From Escherichia coli (lineage in GTDB: Bacteria; Pseudomonadota; Gammaproteobacteria; Enterobacterales; Enterobacteriaceae): a DNA stretch of 64,000 nucleotides. Of this stretch, positions 5,460-64,000 are shown one piece after another (the stretch's first letter is position 1; each line of letters begins with the position of its first letter). The notes below the pieces were generated by a model. That model ran no database searches. It worked only from the letters and a program-made list of their open reading frames with translations, and had not been told where the DNA came from. Location: the NCBI RefSeq assembly GCF_003019035.1, contig NZ_CP027447.1, one strand, 5' to 3'. Both the position numbers and the translations under genes were made by a program.

Positions 5460-5493
5460 AGTTGCCTCTCCGTTTCGTTCAAATATTAAAATA

Positions 5494-5507
5494 CTTTCGA
5501 ATGAAAG
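5494..5507. promoter_or_regulatory. Palindromic motif CTTTCGAATGAAAG (copy 3 of 3) in the divergent ybiY / fsaA promoter region
   Basis: Sequence ctttcgaatgaaag read directly; 35 bp upstream of the ybiY ATG and 83 bp upstream of the fsaA ATG. Confidence 0.4.
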
Positions 5508-5589
5508 TTAGATTGATGTGCGTCAACTGTTCAGAGAGTTTTCCCGTGATAGTCTACATTCAGACAAAAAGTACATTTTGAGGATGGTT

Positions 5590-6252: not shown

Positions 6253-6330
6253 CCGGACGTTCTGCATCCTCATAAATTGCTGATGACGTGGCGGAGTGTC
6301 GCGTCTTATCTGGCCTGGAGGTGGCAGTTA

Positions 6331-7077
6331 CTACCCGCACACCTCACACCCCGGATTACGCATCAGTTTCATTTCGCGAAACTGACAGGTCATCGCATCG
6401 TACATCACGATTTTTCCGCTGGCCGGTTTGCCATAACCTGCCAGCAGTTTGATCGCTTCCATTGCCTGCAACGAACCAATTACGCCGATCAACGGTGCCA
6501 TCACGCCTGCTTCTACGCAGGTTAACGCGTTCTCGCCAAACAAACGGCTAAGGCAGCGATAGCACGGTTCGCCGTCCTGATAAGTGAAGACCGTGATTTG
6601 CCCTTCCATACGAATTGCCGCGCCGGAAACCAGCGGCACCTTCGCGGCAAAACAGCCTGCGTTCAGTTGATTACGTACTGCAACGTTATCCGTACAGTCG
6701 AGCACCAGATCGTGTTTTGCAATCATCGCAGCAAGTTCAGCGTCATCAAGCAGCGCATTGACTGGCGTAATCGCGATATGTGGGTTGATCCGCGTCAGGG
6801 CGTCACGGGCGGATTCCACCTTCGGTTGCCCGACCGTGGCATCACTGTGCAGCGTCTGGCGTTGCAGATTGGAGAGCGAAACCGTGTCGAAGTCGAGCAG
6901 CGTCAGGTTGCCGACACCGGCGCTTGCCAGATACTGCGAAGCTGCGCAGCCGAGTCCACCAAGGCCGACGACCAGCACGCGGGAATCTTTCAATGCTTCC
7001 TGACCGTCAAAATCAAAACCGCGCAGAATGATTTGCCGGTTGTAGCGCAGCATCTCCTGATCGCTGAGTTCCGCCAT
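6331..7077 (-). CDS. moeB: Molybdopterin-synthase adenylyltransferase
   Basis: 248-aa ORF; ThiF/MoeB dinucleotide-binding motif VLVVGLGGLG and C-terminal CxxC pairs. Confidence 0.93.
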   Translation of the reverse strand: MAELSDQEMLRYNRQIILRGFDFDGQEALKDSRVLVVGLGGLGCAASQYLASAGVGNLTLLDFDTVSLSNLQRQTLHSDATVGQPKVESARDALTRINPHIAITPVNALLDDAELAAMIAKHDLVLDCTDNVAVRNQLNAGCFAAKVPLVSGAAIRMEGQITVFTYQDGEPCYRCLSRLFGENALTCVEAGVMAPLIGVIGSLQAMEAIKLLAGYGKPASGKIVMYDAMTCQFREMKLMRNPGCEVCG

Positions 7078-8312
7078 TACAGGCCTCCGAACAACGCGTT
7101 AAACGGTTCTACTTCCACCCATTCGCCCACTTCCACATTGCCGCGATCGCGTTCCAGCACGATAAAGCAGTTGCCGAGGCTAAAGGAGCTAAATATATGT
7201 GAACCCTGATGTCCGGTGGTCGTCACTTCCAGTTCGCCATCGGCGTTGCGTTGCAGCACGCCGCGCTGGAAATCAAGGCGTCCTGGCGATTTCTTCAGAG
7301 GCGATGCCGTGCGCACACGCTGGCGCGCGGGCAGGCCGCTGGCGGTATTGCCGCTTAGTTTTGCCAGCAAAGGCTGTACCAGTTGATAGAAGGTCAGCGT
7401 TGCTGAAACCGGGTTGCCCGGCAGGCCGCAGAACCAGCTATTGCTGAGTTTACCGAACGCGAACGGTTTACCTGGTTTAATCGCCAGCTTCCAGAAGGCG
7501 ATCTCCCCCAGCTCTTCAAGAATCGTTTTGGTGTAATCCGCTTCACCCACTGAAACACCGCCGGAACTGATCACCACATCCGCCTGGCTGTCGGCTTCAA
7601 TAAATGCGGCGCGCAGGGCATGGGGATCGTCGCGGATAATCCCTAAGTTAATTACCTCGCAACCCAGCTGTTCTAACATCAGGTGTACGGCGAGACGGTT
7701 GGTATCGTAGATTTGGCCATCGCCCAGCGGCTGACCGGGCAACTGGAGTTCATCACCGGTAGAAAAAAGCGCTACACGCACTTTACGGATCACCGGAACT
7801 TCGGCAATCCCTAGCGAAGCAATCACTGGCAGTTCAGCGGTAGTCAGGCGAGTCCCCGCCGGGAAAACAACCGCACCTGCAGAGATATCTTCACCGCGAC
7901 GGCGAATATTTTGTCCGCTACGCACTTCAGCAGTAAAACGCACGCCATTGTCCGTTTGTTCAGTCTGCTCCTGCATCACCACCGCTTCGCAGCCTTCCGG
8001 CACCGGCGCACCGGTCATAATACGAATGCAGGTACCCGCAGGCCATTCACCATGGTACGGCTGACCGGCAAAGGATTTACCGGCAACGGGCAGCGGTTGC
8101 CCGGAGGCAATATCGGCTAAACGCACCGCGTAGCCGTCCATAGCGGAGTTATCAAACCCCGGGACATCCAGTGGCGAAACGACATCGCTCGCCAGAATAC
8201 GACCAAAACACTGAACCAGTGGCAGCGTTTCCTGGGCGGTCAGTGGGGTAACGCGAGAAAGCATCTCATTAAGCGCGGTGTCGAGCGACATCAATCCGGT
8301 GGTAAATTCCAT
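7077..8312 (-). CDS. moeA: Molybdopterin molybdenumtransferase
   Basis: 411-aa ORF upstream of and overlapping moeB by 1 nt; matches recalled MoeA. Confidence 0.93.
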
Positions 8313-39310: not shown

Positions 39311-39502
39311 GAAACGTTGCCCCCAGGAGGATTCATTCTGATGGGGGCTAGTTTGGGCAATGAGTGAAATAAGGCGTAAGGTGGGCGGTTATTTTGATAA
39401 GTGATCGTCCGCTTTGTGTCAGAAGCAGAAGTGGGAGTGTCTGAGACTCTCTAAAAGTTGATGATTCACTTACAAAACCATTTTCCTGATGGATGCTTAC
39501 AC

Positions 39503-39838
39503 TTACGAATGATCATTCTGTTTAGTCTTCATGAGAAAATCCCGAATCTTTGCCAAGTTTGAATTTTCGGGGATTGAATCCATGTACGGATCACGCTCAA
39601 ACACTAATTGCTCAGATTCAACGAAAGCCTGCCACTCTACTGGGTCTAGCTCAAATCCCATTGCTGTCATATCACTTTCATCTTCCCCCTCGATCCAGTG
39701 GACTAAATAAAACAATTCATCATCAGGAGAATCATCCTCACCATCAACAATATCAACATCGGTTACAGTGATACGTAGGGTGGGATCGATTTTTGAGACA
39801 TAAATTCCTAACTGTGGTATAGGGGGAATATTGTTCAT
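39503..39838 (-). CDS. Highly acidic small protein of unknown function
   Basis: 111-aa ORF with GGAG RBS; very Asp/Glu-rich (e.g. DVDIVDGEDDSPDDELFY, EGEDESD). Confidence 0.55.
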   Translation of the reverse strand: MNNIPPIPQLGIYVSKIDPTLRITVTDVDIVDGEDDSPDDELFYLVHWIEGEDESDMTAMGFELDPVEWQAFVESEQLVFERDPYMDSIPENSNLAKIRDFLMKTKQNDHS

Positions 39839-40303
39839 GGAAACTCCTTTTATTGGTGTTTGCTATTTGAATAAAAATACGCCAAACAGAGTGTTAACTG
39901 TGAATATGGAAAGAATCGTTGTAAGTACCCCGCTTAGGTGTCCCATTCTATTTTAGAGGTTCTCGTGCATATGGATTATGTTATCTGAAAGTTAACTTCC
40001 GCTTCCCGTTCACAGCGAACATTCATCTTTGTAAACCCGTATGATCCGTTTTTCAAGTGGCCATTCAGATACGGATTTTCACTTCCTTGACAGTGCATGA
40101 CTATGCTGCATGAAATCGCATGATCGATTGAGGATCGTCTTTGCTCAGATCCGCCAGAACTGGCGGGCTTTTGCTCATGTCATGCATGTGCATGAAAACC
40201 ACTGCATAAAGCGGGCAGGCGTGGCGGGGATACGAGCGCGCGCTTATTACTTTGATAGTACTCGGGTTATAATATGGATGACTATCTATCTCGGAGAATG
40301 TGC

Positions 40304-41956
40304 ATGTCATTGGACTATATTAAAGAACAGTTGTCAGACTTTATTTCATCTGCAGAACCTGAGGTAATGGCTATTCAGGGTGAATGGGGGATTGGGAAAA
40401 CCTATACTTGGAATACTTTCTTAAAGGAAAATAAAAATAAGATTGCATTTAATAGATATAGTTACGTCTCTCTTTTTGGTGTTAATTCATTGGACGCATT
40501 AAAATATTCCATCTTTGAAAATACAATTACAAAAGATTTTATTGGAAATAAACCTAATTTAAAAACAGCAACACAAAATACAAAGGGACTTCTTGAATCC
40601 TGCACTAGAAAGACCGCTCGTTTGTTAAAAGAAACACCTGTTGTGAAAAATTTCGCTACGACACTTGAGTCAATGTCATTTATGTCAATTACTAATGTTA
40701 TTGTAGTCATAGATGACTTAGAAAGACGTGGTAAAAATTTAGAAGTGAAAGATGTCTTAGGGTTGGTTTCTTTATTGAAAGAACAAAAAAATTGTAAGGT
40801 GGTTCTTTTACTTAATAATGGGACAAGTGGTATGGATGATTACTCCACTTATAAAGAAAAGGTTATTGATAGAGAGATTACCTATAACCCTACGCCAGAA
40901 GAATGTGCAGCTATAGCATATAAAAATAATTCTGATGTTCATAAATTATTAAGCAAATACTCCATTTCTCTGGGTATTAAAAATATTCGGATACTGAAAA
41001 AAATAGAGCGGTTTTTGCTAGCCTTGTTACCTGCTATTAACGTTAATTTTGATAAAATTGCAAATGAAGTCGCACGCTCCTTAACTTTGTATTGTTGGAG
41101 TCATTACGCATTTACTCCAGATGGAGATGTACCATCATTGGAATATATTAGAAATATGAGAAATATCTATATGCGTGATGAAAAAGAGGATGGAAAAGGA
41201 AAAAAATGGCTTAATACTTTGCTTATATATGGTTATAAAAAAACAAACGAACTTGATGAAGTCCTTATAGACATGGTTAAGCATGGATATATTGATATGA
41301 ACAATTTTCAAAGGCAAGTAAGTCTAAGAAATGATGAACTTATCCGTGATAGTAAGCGAGGTTCACTGTTTGAAGCATGGAAGCTTTTCTATAATTCATT
41401 TGAAGATAACCGAAATCAGGTTGTTGATAATCTATATCAAGCGGTGGTTGGTGGGATAGAGTATGTAACTCCAAGTGACTTGGATAGTGTTGTCGGACTG
41501 TATAGAGATTTAGATGAAAATATTAAAGCAAGTGAATTAATAAGTAAATTTATTAATTACGGCAATGATGCTCTTAAGGAATATGTCCAATCTATTTACA
41601 TGAATGTTCATCCTATAAAAGATGCTGAGTTAAAGTCAAAAATCCAAGATTATTCTATTACTTTAAATCTGGATGGTTCTATAAAGGATGTTCTAATAAA
41701 ATTATCAAGTCAGAATGGTTGGTCTGATAGGCACGAGGAAATATTGGATGCTGCCTCAGAGGATGACTACTATGATTTATTTAAAAAAGTCATTCTTGAA
41801 GGTGGTGATTCAATAATAGCCACTGCTCTTAAGTTTGGTGGGTATAGCAATGGTTCAGATAGAATGAAACGCATCGGAGAAAAAGCGAGAAATGCTTTGA
41901 TAAGAATTGGAAATGAGTCGAAGATTAATAAAATACGTGTTAGACGGTATTTGTAA
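40304..41956 (+). CDS. KAP-family P-loop NTPase (alternative start at 40274)
   Basis: Walker A of KAP type (GEWGIGKTY) and Walker B (VIVVIDDLERRG); AT-rich codon usage unlike the flanking phage genes; lies at the P2 old/tin position between A and Q. Confidence 0.75.
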   Translation: MSLDYIKEQLSDFISSAEPEVMAIQGEWGIGKTYTWNTFLKENKNKIAFNRYSYVSLFGVNSLDALKYSIFENTITKDFIGNKPNLKTATQNTKGLLESCTRKTARLLKETPVVKNFATTLESMSFMSITNVIVVIDDLERRGKNLEVKDVLGLVSLLKEQKNCKVVLLLNNGTSGMDDYSTYKEKVIDREITYNPTPEECAAIAYKNNSDVHKLLSKYSISLGIKNIRILKKIERFLLALLPAINVNFDKIANEVARSLTLYCWSHYAFTPDGDVPSLEYIRNMRNIYMRDEKEDGKGKKWLNTLLIYGYKKTNELDEVLIDMVKHGYIDMNNFQRQVSLRNDELIRDSKRGSLFEAWKLFYNSFEDNRNQVVDNLYQAVVGGIEYVTPSDLDSVVGLYRDLDENIKASELISKFINYGNDALKEYVQSIYMNVHPIKDAELKSKIQDYSITLNLDGSIKDVLIKLSSQNGWSDRHEEILDAASEDDYYDLFKKVILEGGDSIIATALKFGGYSNGSDRMKRIGEKARNALIRIGNESKINKIRVRRYL

Positions 41957-41959
41957 TTT

Positions 41960-41983
41960 GGGAGGGGGATTTTCATCCCCCCC
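41960..41983. terminator. GC-rich hairpin between convergent KAP gene and portal gene Q
   Basis: gggagggggat-tttc-atccccccc read directly. Confidence 0.5.
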
Positions 41984-41994
41984 ACACATTTTAT

Positions 41995-43026
41995 CTAATT
42001 CAATGAATAATCTTTGAAGGCTATTATTTTTTTCTTTAGCCAAATATTAACTTCTACAAGTCTTTTTTGTAAAGGAATTAACTCATTTCGCACAAAAACG
42101 CAACCGGCTTTCTCTATATCCCCAAATCCCCCAACATTATTAGGCATTATCCCCATCATTTGTGGCGGTACACGGTGCGCAGCCATCATGTCATCGCGGC
42201 TGACATTTTTGATATTCAGAAACTCATCCTTCGCCGCGACTTCTGACAGAGGAATGATCTGAAGGCCGTCCTTTTTGCCGTTAGGCGAGTACATAAACAG
42301 GTTGCGGAAGTTGCCTGGACCTTTGGCGCTTTTCATCGCGTTGCGGAGATTGTTCACATCCTCCTGATTCTGCGCGGCGTCGGTCATGTACATGATGAAG
42401 CCTGCATGGCTGCCGTTGATGTAATACTTACGGCGGAACAGCGTGGCAGACTCGTTGAGCAGGGCGGATGGAATGGCAGAAAGATAGCCTGGCAGGCCGT
42501 AGATCTCCTGGTTGATGTCCGGTTCCATCAGATGAAAAATGCTGCCTTTCGTGAACTGATACGGCTGGGTTGTCATACCGTATTGCACAAACCAGTAGGT
42601 ATCCAGGTCTAACCCACGTCGGGTGTATTTTGCCAGCGCAGGCTCAAGGGCGATAACTTCACCGAATCGGTTCGTGCGTTTCTCCAGGTAGGCGTTACCA
42701 AATACCAGATAGTCCTGCACAAAACGCGAAAAAGCCTGTTGGCTGAGCAGCGGATGAGGGATATAGGTACTGGTCAGAATGTTGCACTTTACTGCAATCG
42801 GGGAACTGTGATGCACGGCAGCGCGGAAGGTGCGTGCCAGTCCGTCAAAACTTACGGGTGGCTCATACCAGCGATCCGTCTGTACGCATTCCACATAGTC
42901 CAGCAGTTCGCGGCGGTCCAGTACAGGAATGGGATCACCAAAGCTGAAAGCTTCGGCTGAAATTTGATTTTTATGCTGACTCTGTTTCGTCGTCGCAGCG
43001 CGGTTTTTCTTACTCTTTCCCATCAA
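41995..43026 (-). CDS. Portal protein (P2 gpQ-like)
   Basis: 343-aa ORF adjacent to and co-oriented with the large terminase gene, as in P2. Confidence 0.85.
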   Translation of the reverse strand: MMGKSKKNRAATTKQSQHKNQISAEAFSFGDPIPVLDRRELLDYVECVQTDRWYEPPVSFDGLARTFRAAVHHSSPIAVKCNILTSTYIPHPLLSQQAFSRFVQDYLVFGNAYLEKRTNRFGEVIALEPALAKYTRRGLDLDTYWFVQYGMTTQPYQFTKGSIFHLMEPDINQEIYGLPGYLSAIPSALLNESATLFRRKYYINGSHAGFIMYMTDAAQNQEDVNNLRNAMKSAKGPGNFRNLFMYSPNGKKDGLQIIPLSEVAAKDEFLNIKNVSRDDMMAAHRVPPQMMGIMPNNVGGFGDIEKAGCVFVRNELIPLQKRLVEVNIWLKKKIIAFKDYSLN

Positions 43027-52606: not shown

Positions 52607-53185
52607 ATGAACGCACAATTAACCGAAATCATGCGCCTTATCACCAATCTGATCCGCACTGGGGTAGTCACCGAAGTGGACCGGGAGAATTGGCTTTGCC
52701 GGGTGAAAACGGGCGACCTTGAAACTAACTGGATCAGTTGGCTGACGCTGCGTGCCGGGAATGCCCGCACATGGTGGCGACCATCGGAAGGTGAGCAGGT
52801 GGTGCTGCTGAGTCTTGGCGGCAATCTGGAGACTGCCTTTGCGCTGCCCGCTGTCTATTCGAATCAGTTCGCACCACCGTCGACGTCGGCGGACGCCTGC
52901 GTGACAGAACATCCTGACGGTGGCTGGTTTGAATACGAACCCGCCACCGGGCGCTGGTATGTCAAGGGCATCAAATCAATGGTCATTGAGGCCGCTGACA
53001 ACATCACCATGAAAACCAGTGAGTTTGTACTGGAGGCTGACCGCACGCGCATTAACAGCGAAGTGGTGATCAATGGTGGCGTTACCCAGGGCGGCGGAGC
53101 GATGAGTTCTAACGGGATCGTGGTTGATGTGCATCAGCATACTGGCGTCCTGAAAGGCGGCGATACAACCGGAGGCCCGGTATGA
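52607..53185 (+). CDS. Baseplate spike protein (P2 gpV-like)
   Basis: Start at MNAQLTEIMRLITNLIRTG, resembling the recalled P2 gpV N-terminus. Confidence 0.8.
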   Translation: MNAQLTEIMRLITNLIRTGVVTEVDRENWLCRVKTGDLETNWISWLTLRAGNARTWWRPSEGEQVVLLSLGGNLETAFALPAVYSNQFAPPSTSADACVTEHPDGGWFEYEPATGRWYVKGIKSMVIEAADNITMKTSEFVLEADRTRINSEVVINGGVTQGGGAMSSNGIVVDVHQHTGVLKGGDTTGGPV

Positions 53186-53541
53186 CGCTTTATAGCGGGA
53201 TGAACAATACCAGCGGCAAAGTCATTACTGATATTGACCATCTGCGCCAGTCGGTGCGGGACATTCTGCTGACACCGCAGGGTAGCCGTATTGCCCGTCG
53301 GGAATATGGTTCTCTGCTGTCGGCACTGATAGACCAGCCACAAAATCCGGCGTTACGCCTGCAGATTATGTCGGCAGTGTATGTGGCGCTGAGTCGCTGG
53401 GAGCCTCGGATGACGCTGGAATCCATCACAATCAACAGCAATTTTGACGGTTCTATGGTGGTGGAGCTGACCGGGCGGCGGAATAACGGTGTGCCTGTGT
53501 CCCTTTCCGTATCAACAGGAGCAGAGAATGGCAGTGATTGA
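53182..53541 (+). CDS. Baseplate protein (P2 gpW-like)
   Basis: 119-aa ORF between V and J. Confidence 0.8.
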   Translation: MTLYSGMNNTSGKVITDIDHLRQSVRDILLTPQGSRIARREYGSLLSALIDQPQNPALRLQIMSAVYVALSRWEPRMTLESITINSNFDGSMVVELTGRRNNGVPVSLSVSTGAENGSD

Positions 53542-54436
53542 CCTTTCGCAGTTGCCAGCACCGCAGATTGTGGATGTGCCGGACTTTGAGACGCTGCTTG
53601 CCGAACGCAAGGCAGAATTTGTGGCGCTTCATCCGAAAGATGAGCAGGAAGCAGTGATCCGCACGCTGGAACTGGAATCTGAACCCGTCACCAAATTGTT
53701 GCAGGAGAACGCTTACCGTGAGTTGCTTCTGCGCCAGCGTATTAACGAAGCCGCGCAGGCGGTGATGGTGGCTTACGCAATGGGCGGAGATCTTGACCAG
53801 CTCGCCGCTAATTACAATGTGAAACGCCTGACGGTGACACCTGCTGATTATGACGCTGTGCCGCCCGTTGCGGCTGTGATGGAAAGCGATGAAGCGTTAC
53901 GCCTGCGTGTGCCTGCGGCTTTTGAAGGGCTTTCGGTTGCGGGGCCAACTGCAGCTTATGAATTTCATGCCCGAAGCGCCGACGGTCGGGTGGCGGATGC
54001 CAGTGCAACCAGTCCGGCACCTGCAGAGGTGGTGCTGACTGTCCTGAGCCGCGAAGGCGATGGAACAGCAGAAAAAGACCTGCTGGACGTGGTGGAAAAA
54101 GCTCTGAACAGTGAGAACGTCCGCCCGGTGGCTGACCGTCTGACGGTTCGCAGCGCAGAAATCATCCCGTACCGCGTGGAAGCTACCATTTTTCTCTATC
54201 CGGGGCCGGAAGCAGAGCCGGTAATGGCAGCGGCAAAAGCCAGTCTGCAGAAGTACATCGCCAGTCAGACGCGGCTTGGTCGGGATATTCGCCGTAGCGC
54301 CATCTTTGCCGCCCTGCATGTTGAGGGAGTGCAGCGTGTGGAGCTGGCTTCACCACTGGCGGATGTGGTCTTGAACAAAACACAGGCCGCATCATGTACG
54401 CAGTGGAGCGTAACCAACGGAGGAACGGATGAATAG
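53528..54436 (+). CDS. Baseplate protein (P2 gpJ-like)
   Basis: Start at MAVIDLSQLPAPQIVDVPDFETL; 302 aa. Confidence 0.8.
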   Translation: MAVIDLSQLPAPQIVDVPDFETLLAERKAEFVALHPKDEQEAVIRTLELESEPVTKLLQENAYRELLLRQRINEAAQAVMVAYAMGGDLDQLAANYNVKRLTVTPADYDAVPPVAAVMESDEALRLRVPAAFEGLSVAGPTAAYEFHARSADGRVADASATSPAPAEVVLTVLSREGDGTAEKDLLDVVEKALNSENVRPVADRLTVRSAEIIPYRVEATIFLYPGPEAEPVMAAAKASLQKYIASQTRLGRDIRRSAIFAALHVEGVQRVELASPLADVVLNKTQAASCTQWSVTNGGTDE

Positions 54437-55034
54437 TCTGCTGCCACCGGGTTCAACTTCACTGGAGCGCCGACTGGCGCAGACCTGTAGCGGGATTTCT
54501 GATCTGCAGGTGCCGCTGCGTGACTTGTGGAATCCGGCAACCTGTCCGGTCAGTTTCCTGCCTTATCTCGCCTGGGCGTTCTCTGTGGATCGCTGGGACG
54601 AGGTCTGGACAGAAAGCGTCAAGCGCCAGGTGGTGAAGGATGCTTTTTATATTCATCAGCATAAAGGGACCACCAGTGCCGTGCGGCGGGTGGTGGAGCC
54701 GTTCGGCTTTCTGATTCGCATTATTGAGTGGTGGCAGACCGGAGAGACACCGGGCACGTTTCGTCTGGATATCGGCGTGCAGGACCAGGGCATCACTGAA
54801 GATACCTATCTGGAACTTGAGCGACTGATAAGCGATGCCAAACCATGTAGCCGTCACATGATCGGCATGTCCATCAACCTGCAGACCAGCGGCCCGCATT
54901 GGGTGGGAGTCGCCAGCTATCTTGGCGAAGAAATCACGATTTATCCGTATATCAACGAAACGATTATTTCCGGCGGCACCGCGCATGAAGGCGGGGCGGT
55001 CCATGTTATTGACACAATGAGAGTGAATCCATGA
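54429..55034 (+). CDS. Baseplate protein (P2 gpI-like)
   Basis: 201-aa ORF between J and H. Confidence 0.8.
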   Translation: MNSLLPPGSTSLERRLAQTCSGISDLQVPLRDLWNPATCPVSFLPYLAWAFSVDRWDEVWTESVKRQVVKDAFYIHQHKGTTSAVRRVVEPFGFLIRIIEWWQTGETPGTFRLDIGVQDQGITEDTYLELERLISDAKPCSRHMIGMSINLQTSGPHWVGVASYLGEEITIYPYINETIISGGTAHEGGAVHVIDTMRVNP

Positions 55035-56407
55035 GCACAAAATTTTATACCCTGCTGACGGATATTGGCGCGGCGAAACTTGCCAGCGCCGCCGCGCTCG
55101 GTGTGCCGCTAAAAATTACCCATATGGCGGTGGGCGATGGCGGTGGAGCATTGCCGACGCCGGACGCAAAGCAGACTGCACTGGTAAATGAGAAACGCCG
55201 GGCTGCGCTGAATATGCTCTATATCGACCCGCAGAACAGTAGCCAGATTATTGCTGAACAGGTGATCCCTGAAAACGAGGGCGGTTGGTGGATACGTGAA
55301 GTGGGCCTGTTTGATGAGTCAGGGGCATTGATTGCCGTGGGAAACTGCCCGGAAAGCTATAAGCCGCAACTGGCTGAAGGCAGCGGGCGCACCCAGACTG
55401 TGCGCATGGTGCTGATTACCAGCAGCACGGACAATATCACCCTGAAAATCGACCCTGCCGTCGTGCTGGCAACCCGCAAGTATGTGGATGATAAGGTACT
55501 GGAGCTGAAGGTGTACGTGGATGATCAGATGGCAAAACATCTTGCCGCACCGGACCCACATTCACAGTACGCACCCAAAGAAAGCCCGATATTTACCGGA
55601 ACACCCAAAGCGCCAACGCCAGCGGCTGGGAATAATACCACGCAGCTTGCGACCACCGCGTTTGTTCAGGCGGCACTGACGACACTGATTAATGGTGCGC
55701 CAGCCACGCTGGACACGCTGAAAGAAATAGCCACAGCCATTAACAATGATCCGAAATTCAGTACCACTATCAACAATGCGCTGGCACTGAAAGCGCCGTT
55801 GTCGAGTCCGGCACTCACCGGAACGCCAACAGCACCTACTGCGGCACAGTCGGTCAACAATACACAGATTGCCACCACGGCTTTTGTGAAATCGGCGATT
55901 GCGGCAATGGTGGGTTCTGCCCCTGCGGCACTGGATACACTGAACGAACTGGCGGCGGCACTGGGGAATGACCCGAATTTTGCCACGACAATGCTTAATG
56001 CGCTGTCAGGTAAACAACCGCTGGACAATACGCTGACTAATTTGAGTGGAAAGGATGTTGCTGGTCTTCTCGCATTCCTGGGTTTGAAAACCGCCGCACA
56101 ACGCGACGTTGGGACTGGCACAAATCAAATTCCTGACATGAACGCTTTTAGCTCTGGCTCTGGCTGGCAGAAATTACCTGGAGGCAGGATTCTGCAGTGG
56201 CGGGGAATAGCCAATGGCCCTGGGGATATTACAAGCCCGCTACCCATTCCATTTCCAAATCGCGCAATAGGATGGGCAATTACGTCCGATTATGTACCAG
56301 GGTCAGGCGGAGTTGGCACAATAGCGGGGACGTGTACTGCAACGAATATCATTTCACGAAATACAAATGTGAGCACTGGTGGTAGCGCTATCGTAGTGGG
56401 GGAATAG
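55031..56407 (+). CDS. Tail fibre protein (P2 gpH-like)
   Basis: 458-aa ORF with repeated collar-like segments (QLATTAFVQAAL ... QIATTAFVKSAI). Confidence 0.8.
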   Translation: MSTKFYTLLTDIGAAKLASAAALGVPLKITHMAVGDGGGALPTPDAKQTALVNEKRRAALNMLYIDPQNSSQIIAEQVIPENEGGWWIREVGLFDESGALIAVGNCPESYKPQLAEGSGRTQTVRMVLITSSTDNITLKIDPAVVLATRKYVDDKVLELKVYVDDQMAKHLAAPDPHSQYAPKESPIFTGTPKAPTPAAGNNTTQLATTAFVQAALTTLINGAPATLDTLKEIATAINNDPKFSTTINNALALKAPLSSPALTGTPTAPTAAQSVNNTQIATTAFVKSAIAAMVGSAPAALDTLNELAAALGNDPNFATTMLNALSGKQPLDNTLTNLSGKDVAGLLAFLGLKTAAQRDVGTGTNQIPDMNAFSSGSGWQKLPGGRILQWRGIANGPGDITSPLPIPFPNRAIGWAITSDYVPGSGGVGTIAGTCTATNIISRNTNVSTGGSAIVVGE

Positions 56408-56409
56408 GT

Positions 56410-56832
56410 ATGAGAACGTATCGCTATGACGCAATAACAAACGCATTTTATCCGTATGAGCTACAGAATGAGTATGAACAAGCAGGGATGTGGCCGGAGT
56501 CGGGCCATGATGTGAATGAAGATATTTTTCAGCAATTCATCAACCCTCCCGCAGGTAAGGTGCGTGTTGCCGGGAATGACGGAATGCCAGCATGGGGGGA
56601 TATTCCGCCACCGGCTCATGATGAACTCGTTGCGGTAGCAGATGTGAAAAAAGCAGCACTATTGGCAGAAGCGTCAGTCGTTATCGCCCCGCTGGCTGAT
56701 GCACAGGCGGGCGGTTATATCGATGACGCTGACGTGCCGCGACTGGCAGCATGGCAGAAATATCGCTATGCACTGACGAAAGTGGATACATCAACTGCGC
56801 CGGATATCACCTGGCCGCTGCAACCAGTGTAG
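56410..56832 (+). CDS. Tail fibre assembly chaperone (P2 gpG-like)
   Basis: 140-aa ORF directly after the fibre gene. Confidence 0.75.
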   Translation: MRTYRYDAITNAFYPYELQNEYEQAGMWPESGHDVNEDIFQQFINPPAGKVRVAGNDGMPAWGDIPPPAHDELVAVADVKKAALLAEASVVIAPLADAQAGGYIDDADVPRLAAWQKYRYALTKVDTSTAPDITWPLQPV

Positions 56833-57016
56833 AAATCTTTAGTGTAAATCGTCAAAGATGCTGGCGACTTGATGATTGATGACGGTATCAGTGATGATAA
56901 TTTACAGGTTGTACGGGAATAATACATAACAATTTGAATGGGGTATAATAGATAAATAATACATCATCATACCCCATTTTAGCCATTATCTATTGGCAAA
57001 AATATTCTTAATACCT

Positions 57017-58054
57017 TTATATTTGCCTACCTCCTAATAAAATGTGTGAGGTGTATTTGTTGGTTTTCAATAACCTTGCTACAATTATACAGGTGGTTAC
57101 AATAAGGAAAACAAATGAAGGGGTTATGATGAGGTTATATATGAGTGGATTTTCGCATAGGTTATTAATGTTCACGTATGCCTCTATTCTGTGAAAAATA
57201 AACGACGAGATTATATAGATGGGAAAGGTGTAAGTACCGACAAAGGATGTGGCTCGTATAAATAAATTATTTTTCGTTGATAAAAATGTATAAGCATATA
57301 TAAGCGATATGCTTCCGGCGAAGCCAATGAAGTAGCGAAATATAATAATGAATGATTGATGCCAGAAATCAACATTCTCATATGTCATTTTAGATATGTA
57401 AATATAATACTCTCTATTCCATAGGAGAAGCATACCAATCCATGTTAATACGGCTAACACACCAATTTTGTGCCTATTTCTAGAGGCAAAATCTAAAATG
57501 CGATGGGCGGATATACCAGCGATAAAATAAGGGGCCATAAATTTAATTTTGTCCATATTCCAATCATCTCCATATGCAAGGGATATACTAAATATCAGTA
57601 AATAAAGCACCACAGAATATTGTTTGCTTATTGAGTGACAAATAGTATAAACAATAGATACTGCAAAGAGTGCAGAAAGGAACCAGAAGGCGTAGATGGC
57701 TCCATATCTAATATTTATTAAATTTATATCTCTTCCCACAAAAATGGATTCAGCAATGAACCATGCAATGGATGGGATTATTAACTGCATGAATTTTCTT
57801 TTGATAATTGATGATGGTTTTCTCTTGAGAGAAAAATAGAAAAGATAGCCGCTAAGCAGCATAAAAAATGGCATGTGGAAGCTGTAAATGGTAATAAATA
57901 ATGGGTTGTCAAAAAAATTGAAACTATCTTTTTTTACAAACTGAATTGAATGGCCCCACACGACAAAAATTATAGCTAATCCTTTCATTGAGTCTATAAT
58001 GGAATTTCGAGTGCTGGGTGTCTCTGTTATAATAAGATGTGGTTCGTTTTTCAT
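57017..58054 (-). CDS. Membrane acyltransferase (acyltransferase-3 family; candidate LPS O-acetyltransferase)
   Basis: 345-aa polytopic ORF; N-terminal RNSIIDSMKGLAIIFVVWGHS typical of OafA/Oac-type acyltransferases; AT-rich; at the P2 Z/fun position. Confidence 0.75.
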   Translation of the reverse strand: MKNEPHLIITETPSTRNSIIDSMKGLAIIFVVWGHSIQFVKKDSFNFFDNPLFITIYSFHMPFFMLLSGYLFYFSLKRKPSSIIKRKFMQLIIPSIAWFIAESIFVGRDINLINIRYGAIYAFWFLSALFAVSIVYTICHSISKQYSVVLYLLIFSISLAYGDDWNMDKIKFMAPYFIAGISAHRILDFASRNRHKIGVLAVLTWIGMLLLWNREYYIYISKMTYENVDFWHQSFIIIFRYFIGFAGSISLIYAYTFLSTKNNLFIRATSFVGTYTFPIYIISSFIFHRIEAYVNINNLCENPLIYNLIITPSFVFLIVTTCIIVARLLKTNKYTSHILLGGRQI

Positions 58055-58385
58055 TTAATTTGTCAACTTTAGATTGAGTGGTATAAGAATTGCAACTAAA
58101 CACTCGTGAGCTAATATTTACATATATTATCAATGATCATTAATTCAATCAATTAGGAATTGCTTTATTGTATGTAACAGATTCTCATTTTGGGGTAGAT
58201 GCTACTATTGCTGTCATCACACCATAAATTAAGTCCATTCATATTAGATATCTTGGGTCGTTCCGGGAAGTACACGGCCACTATCAGTAAATGTGTGGTA
58301 AGAGCTTCACCAGTCGAACGTTTTTGAAAATACAGAGATAATGGCTAACAGGCATCATCCCCGGTTTTTATTTAGGGGGATGCTC

Positions 58386-58706
58386 ATGCTTATTGGCTAT
58401 GTACGTGTATCAACAAATGACCAGAACACTGATTTGTAATGCAATGCGCTGAACTGCGCGGGATGTGCGCGGATTTTTGAGGATAAAATCAGTGGCACTA
58501 AGTCCGACAGGCCGGGACTGGCTGCAGCTCGCGCCAAAGGCAGAGTAGGTGGACGCCGTCCTAAGTTGACCACCGAACAGTGGGCACAGATTGGACGTTT
58601 ACTCGAGGCCGGAGAATCAAGACAGCGTATTGCACTGATTTTTGATGTAGGCGTTTCTACCATTTATCGAAAATTTCCGGCAAATAAGAGCAATGAATCT
58701 CCCTGA
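58386..58706 (+). pseudogene. Decayed serine DNA invertase (Gin/Pin/Hin family)
   Basis: N-terminal MLIGYVRVSTNDQNTDL stops at 58437..58439; a downstream frame encodes DKISGTKSDRPGLAAARAKGRVGGRRPKLTTEQWAQIGRLLEAGESRQRIALIFDVGVSTIYRKF (HTH C-terminus); the central catalytic region is missing. Confidence 0.7.
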
Positions 58707-58848
58707 ATCAGCTTTATTTTGATTATCCCTGAAAGCAGACAAATACCGTCATTTTGTGTGAATAACGGTACAACTGCGCTTAGCTGTTTGTCAGGCACAA
58801 TAACTTCAACATAGGGCGAAGCCTAATCCAATCAGGAGGTTCGCCACT

Positions 58849-60021
58849 ATGGCTCAGGATTACCACCACGGGGTGCGCGTAGTTGAAGTCAACGAAGGCA
58901 CCCGATCCATTACCACGGTGAGCACCGCCATCGTGGGTATGGTCTGCACGGGCGATGATGCCGATGCAAAAATGTTTCCTCTTAATAAACCCGTGCTGAT
59001 CACTGATGTGCTGACTGCCAGCGGTAAAGCGGGTGAGTCCGGTACGCTGGCCCGTTCGCTGGATGCCATCGCTGACCAGGCAAAACCCGTGACCGTTGTT
59101 GTGCGTGTGCCGCAGGGTGAAACGGAAGAAGAAACCACGACCAATATCATCGGAGCAGTGACCGCTGAAGGTAAAAAAACAGGCATGAAAGCCCTGTTAT
59201 CTGCCCAGTCACAGCTCGGCGTTAAACCGCGCATTCTCGGCGTGCCAGGTCACGACACGAAGGCGGTAGCTACTGAGTTGCTGAGCGTGGCGCAAAGCCT
59301 GCGTGGGTTTGCTTACCTGTCAGCGTATGGTTGCAAGACGGTGCAGGAAGCAATCACTTACCGTGAAAACTTCAGTCAGCGTGAAGGAATGCTGATCTGG
59401 CCCGACTTTACTGGCTGGGACACGGTGCTGAATGCCGAAGCAACGGCTTATGCCACCGCCCGTGCGCTTGGTCTGCGCGCTAAAATTGACGAGCAGACCG
59501 GATGGCACAAAAGCCTGTCCAACGTGGGCGTGAACGGTGTCACCGGAATTTCTGCTGATGTGTTCTGGGATCTGCAGGACCCGGCAACCGATGCAGGTCT
59601 GCTGAACCAGAACGACGTCACCACGCTTGTGCGTAAAGACGGTTTCCGCTTCTGGGGTTCCCGCAGCCTGAGTGATGACCCGCTCTTTGCCTTCGAAAAC
59701 TACACCCGCACGGCGCAGGTGTTGATGGACACGATGGCAGAAGCACACATGTGGGCGGTGGATAAACCGCTTAACCCGTCGCTGGCCCGCGACATTATCG
59801 AAGGTATCCGCGCCAAAATGCGCAGCCTGGTCAGTCAGGGCTATCTCATTGGTGGTGATTGCTGGCTGGATGAGTCGGTGAACGACAAAGACACGCTGAA
59901 AACCGGAAAACTCACCATCGACTATGACTACACGCCAGTGCCGCCACTTGAAAATCTGATGCTGCGCCAGCGCATCACCGATCAGTACCTGGTGAATTTC
60001 GCCAGCCAGGTCAGCGCGTAA
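58849..60021 (+). CDS. Tail sheath protein (P2 gpFI-like)
   Basis: 390-aa ORF followed by the tube gene. Confidence 0.85.
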
Positions 60022-60030
60022 GGGGACAAC

Positions 60031-60546
60031 ATGGCTTTACCACGCAAATTAAAACATCTGAACTTGTTTAACGACGGGAACAACTGGCAGGGGATCGTTG
60101 AGTCGCTGACGCTGCCGAAATTCACCCGCAAATATGAGAAGTATCGCGGCGGCGGTATGCCGGGGGCGGTGGATGTGGATCTGGGACTGGATGACAGTGC
60201 ACTGGATACAGAATTTTCCATTGGTGGTACTGAACTGCTGCTGTTTAAGCAGATGGGCAAATCCACGGTGGATGGCATCCAGCTGCGCTTTACCGGCTCT
60301 ATCCAGCGTGACGATACCGGGGAAGTGCAGGCCGTGGAGCTTGTCGTGCGTGGACGTCACAAAGAAGTGGATTCCGGCGAGTGGAAGACGGGCGAAAGCA
60401 ACACCACCAAAGTGACCAATACCAACAGCTACGCGAAGCTGACCATCAATGGTGAGGTGCTCTATGAAGTGGACCTTATCAACATGGTGGAAATTGTGGA
60501 CGGTGTGGACCTGATGGAAGCGCACCGCAACGCCCTCGGCCTCTGA
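60031..60546 (+). CDS. Tail tube protein (P2 gpFII-like)
   Basis: 171-aa ORF after the sheath gene. Confidence 0.85.
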   Translation: MALPRKLKHLNLFNDGNNWQGIVESLTLPKFTRKYEKYRGGGMPGAVDVDLGLDDSALDTEFSIGGTELLLFKQMGKSTVDGIQLRFTGSIQRDDTGEVQAVELVVRGRHKEVDSGEWKTGESNTTKVTNTNSYAKLTINGEVLYEVDLINMVEIVDGVDLMEAHRNALGL

Positions 60547-60600
60547 TGTATCTGAACGGCGCGGAATACCGCGCCAGAACCCAATTGACAGGACAGCAAA

Positions 60601-60903
60601 ATGAGCGATAAGCAGACTGAAAAGACCATTCAACTGGATACCCCCATCAAGCGCGGTAAAACAGAAATCACCGAAATTGTGCTGCGTAAACCGCAGTCCG
60701 GTGCGCTGCGCGGTACACGCCTGCAGGCCATTATGGATATGGATGTAAACGCGATGATGACCGTGATCCCCCGCATCTCCAGTCCGGCACTGACTGCACA
60801 GGAAATTGCAGAGATGGACCCGGCAGATCTCACTGCCATGTCGGTTGAGGTTGTCACTTTTTTGTTGAAGAAGTCGGTGCTTGCCGTTTTACCGACAGCC
60901 TGA
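60601..60903 (+). CDS. Tail assembly chaperone (P2 gpE-like)
   Basis: 100-aa ORF upstream of the tape measure gene; contains the slippery heptamer T_TTT_TTG at 60858..60864. Confidence 0.8.
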   Translation: MSDKQTEKTIQLDTPIKRGKTEITEIVLRKPQSGALRGTRLQAIMDMDVNAMMTVIPRISSPALTAQEIAEMDPADLTAMSVEVVTFLLKKSVLAVLPTA

Positions 60904-61037
60904 CGGTTGACGATCTGGTGGCAGATATCGCCACCATTTTTCACTGGCCGCCATCCGTTACTGACGTTATGCCGCTGACCGAAGTGCTGGAATGGCGGTA
61001 TAAAGCGATTCAGAGAAGCGGGGCCAACGATGAGTGA
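60601..61037 (+). other. Predicted -1 frameshift product E+E' (tail assembly chaperone extension)
   Basis: After slipping -1 at TTTTTTG the frame stays open to a TGA at 61035..61037 (…LTVDDLVADIATIFHWPPSVTDVMPLTEVLEWRYKAIQRSGANDE). Confidence 0.6.
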
Positions 61038-64000
61038 TAACAACCTGCGTCTGCAGGTCATTCTTAATGCGGTTGACAAGCTCACCCGCCCATTTCGATC
61101 TGCGCAGGCCAGTTCAAGAGAACTGGCTGCTGCTGTCAAAAAATCCCGCGATGCAATAAAGCAGCTTGATCAGGCCGGGAGCAGTCTGGACAGCTTCCGA
61201 AAGCTGCAGGCAGAAAATCAGAAATTAGGCGACAGGCTGAACTATGCCCGCCAGCGTGCAAATTTGCTCAGTCAGGAACTGGGAGCGATGGGGCCGCCTT
61301 CGCAACGTCAGGTTGTTGCTCTGGGCCGTCAACGGCTGGCTGTTCAGCGCCTGGAAGAACGCCAGAAAAAGCTGCAGCAGCAGACGGCGCTTGTGCGTGC
61401 TGAACTGTACCGGGCGGGAATTTCTGCGAAAGACGATGCGGGAGCAACTGCCCGTTTAGCCCGTGAAACATCACGTTATAACCAGGAACTTTCGAAACAG
61501 GAGGCGCGGCTGAAGCGACTGGGGGAAGCTCAGCGCAGGATGAATGCAGCGCGTGCCAGTTATGCCCGTTCGCTGGAGGTGCGTGATCGTATTGCAGGTG
61601 CCGGAGCCACCACCACGGCTGCAGGGCTGGCAATGGGTGCGCCAGTGATGGCGGCAGTAAAAAGCTATACCAGCATGGAAGATGCCATGAAAGGTGTGGC
61701 AAAGCAGGTCAATGGTCTGCGTGACGATAATGGCAACCGCACTGCACGTTTTTATGAAATGCAGGATGCCATCAAGGCTGCCAGCGAACAGTTGCCGATG
61801 GAAAACGGTGCGGTGGACTTCGCTGCACTGGTTGAAGGTGGTGCGCGCATGAACGTCGCAAACCCTGACGACAGCTGGGAAGATCAGAAACGTGACCTGC
61901 TGGCCTTCGCCAGTACGGCAGCAAAGGCGGCAACAGCCTTTGAGCTGCCAGCGGATGAACTGTCAGAAAGTCTGGGGAAAATCGCCCAGCTCTACAAAAT
62001 CCCCACCCGCAATATTGAACAGCTCGGTGATGCGCTGAACTATCTGGATGATAACGCCATGTCGAAAGGGGCAGACATCATTGATGTGATGCAACGTCTG
62101 GGCGGTGTGGCTGACCGTCTGGATTATCGTAAAGCGGCGGCGCTGGGTTCCACCTTCCTGACACTGGGCGCTGCGCCAGAGGTTGCAGCCAGTGCAGCAA
62201 ACGCGATGGTGCGTGAATTGTCCATTGCCACCATGCAAAGCAAGAGTTTCTTTGAAGGGATGAATCTGCTGAAACTCAATCCTGAAGTGATTGAAAAGCA
62301 GATGACGAAGGATGCGATGGGAACCATCCAGCGCGTGCTGGAGAAGGTAAACGCGCTGCCGCAGGACAAGCGCCTGTCTGCCATGACTATGTTGTTTGGT
62401 AAAGAGTTTGGCGATGACGCGGCGAAACTGGCAAACAACCTGCCGGAACTGCAGCGTCAGTTAAAACTGACAGCGGGCAATGATGCGCTTGGCTCCATGC
62501 AGAAAGAATCCGACATTAACAAGGATTCACTTTCTGCGCAGTGGTTGCTGGTCAAAACCGGAGCGCAGAACACCTTCAGCAGCCTGGGCGAAACGCTGCG
62601 CCAGCCGCTGATGGATATTCTGTACACGGTGAAAAGCGTCACGGGGGCGTTGCGTCGCTGGGTGGAAGCTAACCCGGAACTGACAGGCACACTGATGAAA
62701 GCATCGGCTGTTGTGGCTGCGGTTACCGTCGGCCTCGGCACCTTAGCGGTGGCGCTGGCTGCAGTGCTGGGGCCGCTGGCAGTGATCCGTCTGGGATTCT
62801 CTGTGTTGGGTATCAAAACGTTATCTTCCGTTACGGCAGCAGTAACCCGAACCAGCAGCGCGTTGTCCTGGCTGGCTGGCGCACCACTGGCACTGCTGCG
62901 ACGCGGGCTTGCTTCATCGGGCAACGCCGCAGGTTTACTTACTGCGCCGTTGTCGTCTTTGCGCCGCACGGCATCACTGACGGGAAATGTCCTGAAAACT
63001 GTAGCAGGTGCGCCGGTTGCATTTTTGCGGTCTGGATTATCCGGTTTACGTGCTGTTGCTGTGATGTTTATGAATCCTCTGGCGGTACTGCGCGGTGGAC
63101 TGGCCGCCGCAGGCACGGTGCTGCGAGTACTGGCATCTGGTCCACTGGCGATGCTGCGCGTTGCCCTGTATGTCATATCTGGTCTGTTAGGTGCTCTGCT
63201 CAGTCCGATAGGTCTTGTGGTTACTGCACTGGCGGGCGTGGCGCTGGTTGTCTGGAAATACTGGCAACCCATCACCGCATTTCTCGGTGGCGTGGTGGAA
63301 GGATTCAAAGCGGCGGCAGGTCCCATCAGTGCAGCGTTCGAACCGCTTAAGCCCGTGTTCCAGTGGATTGGCGACAAAGTGCAGGCGCTGTGGGGCTGGT
63401 TTACTGATCTGCTGACGCCCGTTAAGTCGACCTCTGCCGAACTGCAGAGCGCAGCGGCAATGGGGCGGCGATTCGGGGAGGCACTGGCGGAAGGGCTGAA
63501 TATGGTCATGCATCCGCTGGACTCCCTGAAATCCGGCGTTTCCTGGTTGCTGGAGAAGCTCGGCATTGTCAGTAAAGAGGCCGCAAAGGCAAAACTGCCG
63601 GAAAGCGTGACGCGTCAGCAACCTGCGACGGTGAATGCAGACGGTAAAGTGATGATGCCATCGGGTGGTTTTCCATCATGGGGATATGGCTTTGCGGGGA
63701 TGTATGACAGCGGCGGGTATATCCCGCGCGGGCAGTTTGGCATCGTCGGTGAAAACGGGCCGGAAATTGTTAACGGCCCGGCAAATGTGACCAGCCGGAG
63801 AAATACAGCTGCACTGGCTGCCGTTGTTGCCGGAATGATGGGCGTTGCTGCCGCGCCAGCAGAGCTTCCACCGTTGCACCCCTTGGCACTTCCCGCGAAA
63901 GGTGGAGAAGCAATTGTGAGTCGCGCAGCCACTGTGCCGCTCGTTCAACGGATTGAGGCACCGACGCAGATCATCATTCAGACGCAGCCAGGACAAAGTG
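61030..64000 (+). CDS. Tail tape measure protein (P2 gpT-like), 3' end beyond window
   Basis: ATG at 61030 (MSDNNLRLQVILNAV); frame open to the window end (>980 codons); Ala/Leu-rich repetitive middle; absent from the ORF track because no stop lies in the window. Confidence 0.8.
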   Translation, partial: MSDNNLRLQVILNAVDKLTRPFRSAQASSRELAAAVKKSRDAIKQLDQAGSSLDSFRKLQAENQKLGDRLNYARQRANLLSQELGAMGPPSQRQVVALGRQRLAVQRLEERQKKLQQQTALVRAELYRAGISAKDDAGATARLARETSRYNQELSKQEARLKRLGEAQRRMNAARASYARSLEVRDRIAGAGATTTAAGLAMGAPVMAAVKSYTSMEDAMKGVAKQVNGLRDDNGNRTARFYEMQDAIKAASEQLPMENGAVDFAALVEGGARMNVANPDDSWEDQKRDLLAFASTAAKAATAFELPADELSESLGKIAQLYKIPTRNIEQLGDALNYLDDNAMSKGADIIDVMQRLGGVADRLDYRKAAALGSTFLTLGAAPEVAASAANAMVRELSIATMQSKSFFEGMNLLKLNPEVIEKQMTKDAMGTIQRVLEKVNALPQDKRLSAMTMLFGKEFGDDAAKLANNLPELQRQLKLTAGNDALGSMQKESDINKDSLSAQWLLVKTGAQNTFSSLGETLRQPLMDILYTVKSVTGALRRWVEANPELTGTLMKASAVVAAVTVGLGTLAVALAAVLGPLAVIRLGFSVLGIKTLSSVTAAVTRTSSALSWLAGAPLALLRRGLASSGNAAGLLTAPLSSLRRTASLTGNVLKTVAGAPVAFLRSGLSGLRAVAVMFMNPLAVLRGGLAAAGTVLRVLASGPLAMLRVALYVISGLLGALLSPIGLVVTALAGVALVVWKYWQPITAFLGGVVEGFKAAAGPISAAFEPLKPVFQWIGDKVQALWGWFTDLLTPVKSTSAELQSAAAMGRRFGEALAEGLNMVMHPLDSLKSGVSWLLEKLGIVSKEAAKAKLPESVTRQQPATVNADGKVMMPSGGFPSWGYGFAGMYDSGGYIPRGQFGIVGENGPEIVNGPANVTSRRNTAALAAVVAGMMGVAAAPAELPPLHPLALPAKGGEAIVSRAATVPLVQRIEAPTQIIIQTQPGQS

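Follow-up and report, generated by a model that had tools for sequence, protein, structure and literature searches.

Membrane acyltransferases of the acyltransferase-3 (AT3) family and invertible tail-fibre switches have both been described in temperate phages. In Escherichia coli CFT073, the prophage phi-b0847 carries at its "moron position 2" the gene neaT (c0970), whose AT3 product was reported to be a bacteraemia fitness factor and to alter aggregation and curli/cellulose (PMC3573123, Wiles et al. 2013). Shigella phage Sf6 carries an AT3-only O-acetyltransferase, Oac (OacA), with the serotype-converting enzymes OacB-D and Oac of phage phiV10 as relatives, and in phage P2 the gene fun(Z), which blocks phage T5, lies between the tail-fibre assembly gene G and the tail sheath gene FI. 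Serine invertases of the Gin/Cin/Pin/Hin type belong to switches such as the G segment of Mu, the C segment of P1 and the P segment of e14, and to those of P2-family E. coli prophages and Salmonella phage RE-2010. Here we analysed a stretch of 64,000 nucleotides of E. coli DNA (contig NZ_CP027447.1 of assembly GCF_003019035.1; called "the window" below) which contains a P2-like prophage with an AT3 gene and the remnant of a serine invertase side by side between G and FI. A feature of this kind has been described already in the form of neaT, oac, fun(Z) and the Gin-type switches, and the window gene is a rare, non-orthologous addition to it. We consider it probable that the gene is a lysogenic-conversion moron which sits in the G-FI slot at the place of a former fibre switch and acylates an envelope glycan, with the O-antigen as the favoured target.

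According to profile search and structure model, the open reading frame (ORF) at 57017-58054 encodes a full-length membrane acyltransferase of the AT3 family. Pfam Acyl_transf_3 (PF01757) matched with E=2.1e-26, residues 19-325 of the protein corresponding to positions 3-324 of the 326 positions of the Pfam model. The AlphaFold model, for which 19 homologues were available, consists of helices only and is confident, with a predicted local distance difference test score (pLDDT) of 90.3 and a predicted template modelling score (pTM) of 0.88. The top Foldseek match in the PDB was human HGSNAT, a transmembrane acetyltransferase (probability 0.98-0.99, TM-scores 0.41-0.46, E ~0.1), and one study assigns HGSNAT and the AT3 proteins to a common superfamily of transmembrane acyltransferases (PMC12423673). 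A sequence relative of the window protein at E<=1 was not found among solved structures, AT3 proteins included. In an alignment with 18 homologues, H35 was invariant, and R16, D21, the FHMP motif and the SG motif were nearly invariant. His35 is the counterpart of the catalytic His25 of OafB, which together with Arg14 forms the R-X10-H motif in the first transmembrane helix (PMC9833829). The AT3-only architecture is shared with Oac, Lag-1 and WecH (PMC9558356).

The gene is of foreign origin. It lies in a block of low GC content (~56830-58260) with 31-35% GC compared to 52-59% on either side, and its own 33% contrasts with ~55% in the phage. At the composition of the block, ~7.5% of random codons would be stop codons, and an open frame of 345 codons is therefore not a product of chance (probability roughly 1e-12). 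The original prediction, made from the letters of the window and a list of its ORFs, had placed a minus-strand, AT-rich gene for a polytopic AT3 protein between G and FI, at the position where P2 carries Z/fun, and had named a Pfam search as a check. The ORF, its low-GC surroundings, the PF01757 match and the all-helical model agree with this description, and fun(Z) of P2 is likewise a minus-strand lysogenic-conversion gene between G and FI.

The closest described counterpart by setting is neaT. The window prophage and phi-b0847 are collinear, with 89-98% identity, and occupy the same chromosomal site after rcdA; a near-identical copy in another assembly (L003) ends before ybjL. Collinearity breaks at three cargo loci, namely 39320-42061 (moron position 1), 50288-52606 and 56086-58848, the last of which starts inside the left crossover site described below and ends at the FI start codon. 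Like neaT, the window gene belongs to PF01757, has ~345 codons and ~30% GC, and stands alone on the opposite strand in the G-FI slot of a prophage between rcdA and ybjL. Both genes are rare: neaT was present in 9 of 5,426 complete E. coli genomes, and the window insert in none of them (megablast and blastn). Orthology with NeaT was rejected, as the best BLASTP match had E=0.005 with 26-29% identity over 42-57 residues, and no DNA match was found in CFT073. In addition, phi-b0847 lacks the invertase remnant of the window prophage, and its variable fibre tip and its G gene differ as well. Sequence comparison thus identifies the window gene as a second, non-orthologous AT3 gene in the G-FI slot of phi-b0847-type prophages.

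Oac of Sf6 and fun(Z) of P2 resemble the window gene in other respects. Oac is also an AT3-only protein of similar size (~333-345 aa), is also temperate-phage cargo and is encoded convergently directly after a receptor-binding gene with a terminator in between; the chemistry of Oac and its relatives is presumed to be the same as that of the window protein. Sf6 is a P22-like podovirus, whereas the window prophage is a P2-like myovirus. The gene fun(Z), annotated as a non-essential lysogenic-conversion gene, shares the position after G and a terminator, the minus strand, and the location before the late F promoter and FI, and is set apart by the length of its product (528 aa compared to 345 aa). 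PMC9122126 and a 2026 bioRxiv survey on P2 hotspots mention neither acyltransferases nor invertases.

The arrangement of related prophages shows what the window locus has lost. In E. coli relatives that bear a switch, H and G are followed by an inverted G', the inverted tip of H', an intact invertase of 188 aa and FI, and in a related prophage the switch is marked by a 75-nt inverted repeat. The crossover sites of that relative are TTCTCACATACC TT GGTTTGGGAGAG inside H, within the 75-nt repeat, and TTCTCCCAAACC AA CGTTTATGAAAA just before the invertase gene. The relatives hold G', H' and the intact invertase where the acyltransferase block of the window sits, in agreement with the predicted ancestral invertible fibre switch that became fixed and was partly replaced. 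The region of the invertase-FI junction was matched by ~1,340 of the 5,426 complete E. coli genomes, and a 246-bp segment missing from the window was present in all of the best 25 of these matches.

To the right of the acyltransferase gene, two short plus-strand ORFs (58341-58439 and 58566-58706) represent the two ends of a Gin/Pin-type invertase. We aligned the region 58250-58860 with two E. coli prophages having an intact recombinase of 188 aa. The remnant starts with the ATG at 58386 and reads MLIGYVRVSTNDQNTDL up to a TAA at 58437-58439, which results from a CAA>TAA change in codon 18. As predicted, the N-terminal part thus ends after 17 codons. In contrast to the prediction, the helix-turn-helix (HTH) part is not in a separate frame, since a single-frame translation of 58386-58706 gives MLIGYVRVSTNDQNTDL*CNALNCAGCARIFEDKISGTKSDRPGLAAARAKGRVGGRRPKL and continues to the normal stop at 58706; the two ORFs are split by a stop codon without any frame change. 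Downstream of the stop, 246 bp (82 codons, ~residues 46-127) are deleted in frame, with the junction PGL|AAAR near 58515-58523, which leaves 106 codons of the 188 in intact relatives. Gly-Leu is encoded on both flanks of the junction, which fits a deletion between short repeats. The deletion took the KLDRLGRS segment of the catalytic domain; the Ser9 motif GYVRVST was kept, and the C-terminal HTH tail is almost identical to that of the intact relatives, with Pfam HTH_7 matching the copies in two further assemblies, L003 (ENA) and L004 (Logan).

These additional assemblies show that the invertase gene has decayed and in which order. L003 and L004 have the same order of G, acyltransferase gene, remnant and FI at ~99% identity to the window, and in both the deletion is present and the stop codon is absent. 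A metagenome contig (L068) carries both deletion and stop codon; it differs from window positions 52478-64000 by 1 mismatch in 11,523 bases, and the two may come from related samples. Because three other assemblies have the deletion and one of them also the stop codon, the lesions reflect decay and not a sequencing error, the explanation that the original prediction had named as its own refutation. As the deletion occurs without the stop codon in L003 and L004, it preceded the nonsense codon. Between the lineages, 11 of the 321 bases of the remnant differ (3.4%), leading to eight amino acid changes in 106 residues, compared to 0.36% (8/2200) for the remainder of the 2.5 kb under comparison (Fisher p=3.6e-6). 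The acyltransferase gene differs at 5 of 1038 positions, and G at 0 of 423 in L003 and 1 of 423 in L004, so that the remnant has accumulated substitutions roughly seven-fold over the neighbouring genes (3.4% compared to about 0.5%). The invertase is dead, as it has neither an open frame nor a complete catalytic domain.

The crossover sites have also lost their match. The original prediction had proposed a search for gix-like inverted repeats in the flanks of the H/G region, and two such sites were found, one inside H and one before the remnant. The right site has kept its outer half and an AA core, which on the opposite strand reads TT and does not match the TG core of the left site; its inner half agrees with the relatives at ~5-6 of 12 positions and with the left site of the window itself at 4 positions of 12. 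Inversion by Gin/Pin/Hin-type invertases needs identical core dinucleotides. With unmatched cores, inversion would therefore fail even if an invertase were supplied in trans. The possibility that a remnant of the alternative fibre tip persists to the left of the right site was rejected, as 58140-58335 gave no blastn match and a join to the constant part of H would stop after ~ten codons. Compared with the Gin/Cin/Pin/Hin switches, the locus has retained the GYVRVST N terminus, the HTH_7 C terminus, the position before FI and the 26-bp site at the junction of the constant and variable parts of H, and it differs from them in the 82 deleted codons, the stop in codon 18, the degenerate right inner half, the mismatched cores and the missing alternative fibre cassette. 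The homology of H between the window and CFT073 ends at 56086 (28036 in the CFT073 sequence L067), inside the 26-bp crossover site, and CFT073 has no invertase. A crossover site can thus mark the module boundary at which tail-fibre tips are exchanged, also in phages that have no functional switch.

The coordinates of all features of the locus are given in Table 1.

Table 1. Features of the H-FI region of the window prophage.
Feature	Position	Strand	Basis or remarks
Tail fibre gene H, intact, in one fixed orientation	55031..56407	+	458 aa; PHROG tail-fibre families, E down to 1e-168
Left crossover site (cixL-like) in H	56067..56092		TTCTCGCATTCC TG GGTTTGAAAACC; core TG; kept as coding sequence
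Tail fibre assembly gene G	56410..56832	+	140 aa; phrog_188 (tail fiber assembly) E=3e-44; Pfam Caudo_TAP on the identical L003 gene
Hairpin between the convergent G and AT3 genes, candidate two-way terminator	56936..56979		RNA fold (see text)
Left arm of perfect 13-nt inverted repeat	56979..56991		TTAGCCATTATCT
AT3-only membrane acyltransferase gene (predicted)	57017..58054	-	ORF; 345 aa; 33% GC; PF01757, fold model, alignment
Acyltransferase upstream region	58055..58304		Last ~45 nt of normal GC, without match in E. coli genomes
Right crossover-site remnant	58305..58330		CTTCACCAGTCG AA CGTTTTTGAAAA; outer half and AA core kept, inner half degenerate
Right arm of 13-nt inverted repeat	58336..58348		AGATAATGGCTAA; in conserved leader of the invertase gene
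Gin/Pin/Hin-type serine invertase pseudogene	58386..58706	+	Stop in codon 18 and in-frame 246-bp deletion; HTH tail intact
Spacer from invertase stop to FI	58707..58848		Same in L003 and L004; conserved where the relatives' invertase is intact
Tail sheath gene FI, right border of cargo slot	58849..60021	+	390 aa; annotation of relatives; Pfam Phage_sheath on the L003 copy

No close copy of the acyltransferase gene was found in sequenced phages or in IMG/VR, the best matches being partial ones of 26-35% identity in the phage collection and one of 53% identity in IMG/VR. All homologues with 39-56% identity and readable surroundings are located in phage DNA, and most of them are convergent with genes for tail fibres or tailspikes. 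The homologue with 56% identity adjoins a fragment similar to gpI of P2. One with 53% identity occupies the same H-FI slot in a Fels-2/RE-2010-like prophage (L014, IMG/VR UViG_2773857903_000001) without invertase and without G, and another with 53% identity adjoins phage lysis genes. Homologues with 48-50% identity are convergent with tail-fibre assembly or tail-fibre genes, both at the ends of non-P2 myovirus-type prophages (Citrobacter and a metagenome) and in a degraded prophage (Kosakonia). The Cronobacter homologue (49%) has an integrase gene in its neighbourhood, together with genes for a polyprenyl-phosphate glycosyltransferase, a large membrane protein and an ArnE/F-like flippase. The homologue with 39% identity belongs to a prophage that is widespread in E. 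coli, where it lies between the integrase and tailspike genes together with a second AT3 gene, a layout like that of oac in Sf6. A tail-fibre assembly gene could be recognised in eight of 47 more distant IMG/VR loci, and in 7 of the 8 it is convergent just downstream of the acyltransferase gene. The homologous genes have 32-43% GC in every host.

The widespread E. coli prophage (L011-L013; LR778153.1, CP169397.1 and JAQMUW010000001.1) was indexed in 844 blocks of the assembly collection. Between its repressor/integrase and tailspike genes (4916-7870) it carries a three-gene block coding for an AT3 protein of 354 aa, a protein of 334-358 aa with a weak HL_N-beta match, and the AT3 protein of 289 aa that is 39% identical to the window protein.

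These data show the following history. The ancestor had the usual Gin/Pin-type switch with the order H-constant, cixL, Hv, G, inverted G', inverted Hv', cixR and invertase. The inverted half of the switch was replaced by ~1.4 kb of low-GC foreign DNA with a single AT3-only gene opposing the late tail operon. In the invertase gene, the 82-codon catalytic deletion was followed by the nonsense codon in the window lineage, and as the crossover sites drifted apart, the tail fibre was locked in one orientation. In the lysogen, an acyl group, probably acetyl from cytoplasmic acetyl-CoA, would pass through a pore at the centre of the membrane domain of roughly ten helices, where the conserved His35 and basic residues form the lining, and would be transferred at the periplasmic face to an envelope-polysaccharide sugar; this scheme follows proposals for AT3-only enzymes (PMC9558356, PMC9833829). 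Modification of the O-antigen or of another sugar of lipopolysaccharide (LPS) might alter the serotype and block glycan-dependent phages. By analogy with the characterised AT3 proteins, it is very likely that the enzyme acylates an extracytoplasmic glycan. For the O-antigen as the specific target we see an even chance; it is favoured because the neighbours of the gene and its homologues include receptor-binding genes and bactoprenol-type glycosylation genes. Cargo placement convergent with receptor-binding genes is common to the window, Sf6 and several of the homologue loci. Benefits other than phage exclusion are plausible in view of the work on neaT.

Several observations weigh against the proposal that the gene is expressed from the prophage and modifies the O-antigen. 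P2-type fibres are thought to bind the LPS core and not the O-antigen, so that self-exclusion through the O-antigen is not an obvious pay-off. A substrate or phenotype is not known for any member of the clade, and neaT was reported without a defined substrate (PMC3573123). Orthology with Oac of Sf6 was rejected, since BLASTP gave E=3.6 and phrog_3333, which matches Oac at 6e-68, does not match the window protein. No PHROG matched the protein at E<=0.001, and as PADLOC gave no match either, a known defence system was rejected. The sole NCBIfam match, to NolL, a Nod-factor fucose acetyltransferase of the COG3594 type, runs end to end (residues 15-341 on positions 4-340 of 347; 68 bits, E=7e-19) and, far under the cut-off of 425 bits, indicates a resemblance at family level only. 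In the protein itself, K24 occupies the position of the "absolutely conserved" Arg of the R-X10-H motif, 11 residues before H35; Lys is the majority state at this position in the clade, with Arg in a few members and in Oac of Sf6. At the end of helix 3 that faces the cytoplasm, a strict RXXR motif is absent. Basic clusters are formed by K77-R78-K79 and K85-R86-K87, and R86 aligns with R73 of Oac and Met89 takes the second Arg position, in an alignment of 13% identity that leaves the RXXR register uncertain.

Expression and selection add to these points. A consensus scan of the upstream region revealed no more promoter sites than in shuffled sequence and none at all on the minus strand there, and a clear ribosome-binding site was not found upstream of the gene. 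In the absence of a standout promoter, expression of the acyltransferase in the lysogen is assumed. Phase variation of the Dam/OxyR type as in gtr operons was rejected for the gene, since there is a single upstream GATC site. Relative to the L003 lineage, 4 of the 5 base differences in the acyltransferase gene change an amino acid, so that purifying selection has left no positive trace in its recent history.

Among other explanations, a role resembling that of NeaT deserves the most attention: the target would be an envelope component other than the O-antigen, such as enterobacterial common antigen, LPS core, exopolysaccharide or peptidoglycan, and the benefit would arise in the animal host through aggregation or phagocyte evasion and not through phage exclusion or serotype. 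In a collinear prophage located at the same site of the chromosome, the equivalent slot does hold neaT with its reported effects on bacteraemia fitness, aggregation and curli/cellulose, and AT3-only enzymes acting on non-LPS glycans are known in WecH (enterobacterial common antigen) and IcaC (poly-N-acetylglucosamine, PNAG) (PMC9558356). However, the two proteins are barely similar, so that a function cannot be transferred from neaT, and the repeated location of the clade beside receptor-binding genes and a bactoprenol-type glycosylation module is the pattern of O-antigen-modifying cargo such as oac. We therefore regard a NeaT-like role as possible and yet rather unlikely.

A more specific question is how the acyltransferase block entered the locus. 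The perfect 13-nt inverted repeat listed in Table 1 brackets the acyltransferase gene, and its two copies are the only ones in the 64 kb, where 0.04 would be expected by chance; L003 and L004 have kept 12 of the 13 positions. A gapped similarity extends over ~57 nt and takes in a stretch resembling a crossover half-site beside the 3' end of the acyltransferase gene. It scored 42 compared to 19.9 +/- 3.9 for shuffled sequences, 1 of 2000 shuffles being as good; as the 13-mer itself contributes most of the score, the extension is only suggestive. The repeat could be a trace of the capture of the block. That the block entered via a crossover site of the invertase, or was once a phase-variable module flipped by it, appears doubtful to us. 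The idea starts from the bracketing repeat and from the homology to relatives with a switch, which extends well as far as the outer half of the right site and gives way to a weak resemblance inward of its centre. A comparison of the cassette ends among the homologous loci revealed no common flanking repeats or crossover-like sites. If the idea were true, cargo genes would enter through the serine invertase sites of phage tail-fibre switches, and the locus would document how a phage gave up host-range switching in exchange for modification of the host surface. In the Fels-2/RE-2010-like prophage, a ~23-nt direct repeat (ATATCCGCCAGTACCGGCTCACC) at ~5840-5870 and 7170-7200 flanks the 53%-identical acyltransferase gene.

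The acyltransferase might also be an inert passenger, silent or inactive, filling a slot that tolerates extra DNA. The upstream region without consensus promoter or clear ribosome-binding site, the Lys in place of the motif Arg and the missing RXXR would all fit, as would the absence of the gene from the complete E. coli genomes and the fact that 5 of the 6 base changes among its three haplotypes are nonsynonymous. These arguments lose force on closer comparison: the frame of 345 codons is open at 33% GC in four assemblies while the adjacent invertase decays ~seven times faster, Lys24 is the majority state of the clade, the structure model is confident, and the residue differences (45, 80, 288 and 344 relative to L003/L004, 232 relative to L068) all fall in variable columns. 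An inert gene is therefore very improbable. Least credible of all is that the shortened invertase lives on as a DNA-binding protein of 106 aa, in which the N-terminal stub is fused to the HTH tail, and regulates the acyltransferase or the adjacent late F promoter: the frame is open in L003 and L004, where it still scores with Pfam Resolvase and HTH_7, the deletion is exactly in frame, and a binding half-site lies between remnant and acyltransferase gene, yet the frame is cut at codon 18 in the window and L068, the 8 changes in 106 residues at 3.4% of bases indicate relaxed constraint, and the deletion removes most of the dimerising E-helix of the serine recombinase.

The lysogenic-conversion moron that we favour leaves current concepts unchanged and adds to them in several ways. 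It places a second, unrelated AT3 gene in the cargo slot of P2-like E. coli prophages in which neaT has already been tied to bloodstream virulence, and a third one, from the clade of the window gene, occupies the same slot in the Fels-2-like prophage. Three AT3 genes in one slot suggest that the slot has taken up surface-modifying enzymes repeatedly. The decaying invertase offers a rare before-and-after view of slot turnover, in which the switch was lost first and the recombinase rots afterwards. The clade is missing from PHROGs and defence databases and yet lies beside receptor-binding genes in several types of phages, which makes it a reasonable candidate for experiments.

The intergenic regions of the locus contain two putative transcription signals. 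Between the convergent G and acyltransferase genes, the hairpin folds with -14.8 kcal/mol on the plus strand, where it is followed by UUUU (z=-2.7), and with -21.7 kcal/mol on the minus strand (z=-3.6), and could terminate both transcripts; P2 has an annotated terminator at the equivalent place after G. The spacer between the invertase stop codon and FI should contain the late promoter of the F operon, because in P2 the activator site and transcription start of pF are annotated upstream of FI.

Apart from the G-FI slot, the window prophage carries foreign cargo at two other places and thus three separate blocks in total. Moron position 1 (39320-42061) precedes the genes for portal and terminase; its content is not that of CFT073 and includes a plus-strand ORF (40274-41956, 560 aa) that matches the PADLOC candidate defence family PDC-S49 with E=4e-25 and has no NCBIfam match. 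The segment 50288-52606, absent from the CFT073 prophage and situated just upstream of the baseplate gene V, contains two minus-strand genes (50394-52494; 418 and 285 aa) with ~30% GC, whose products match AriA (E=2e-38) and AriB (E=2e-21) of the anti-phage system PARIS.

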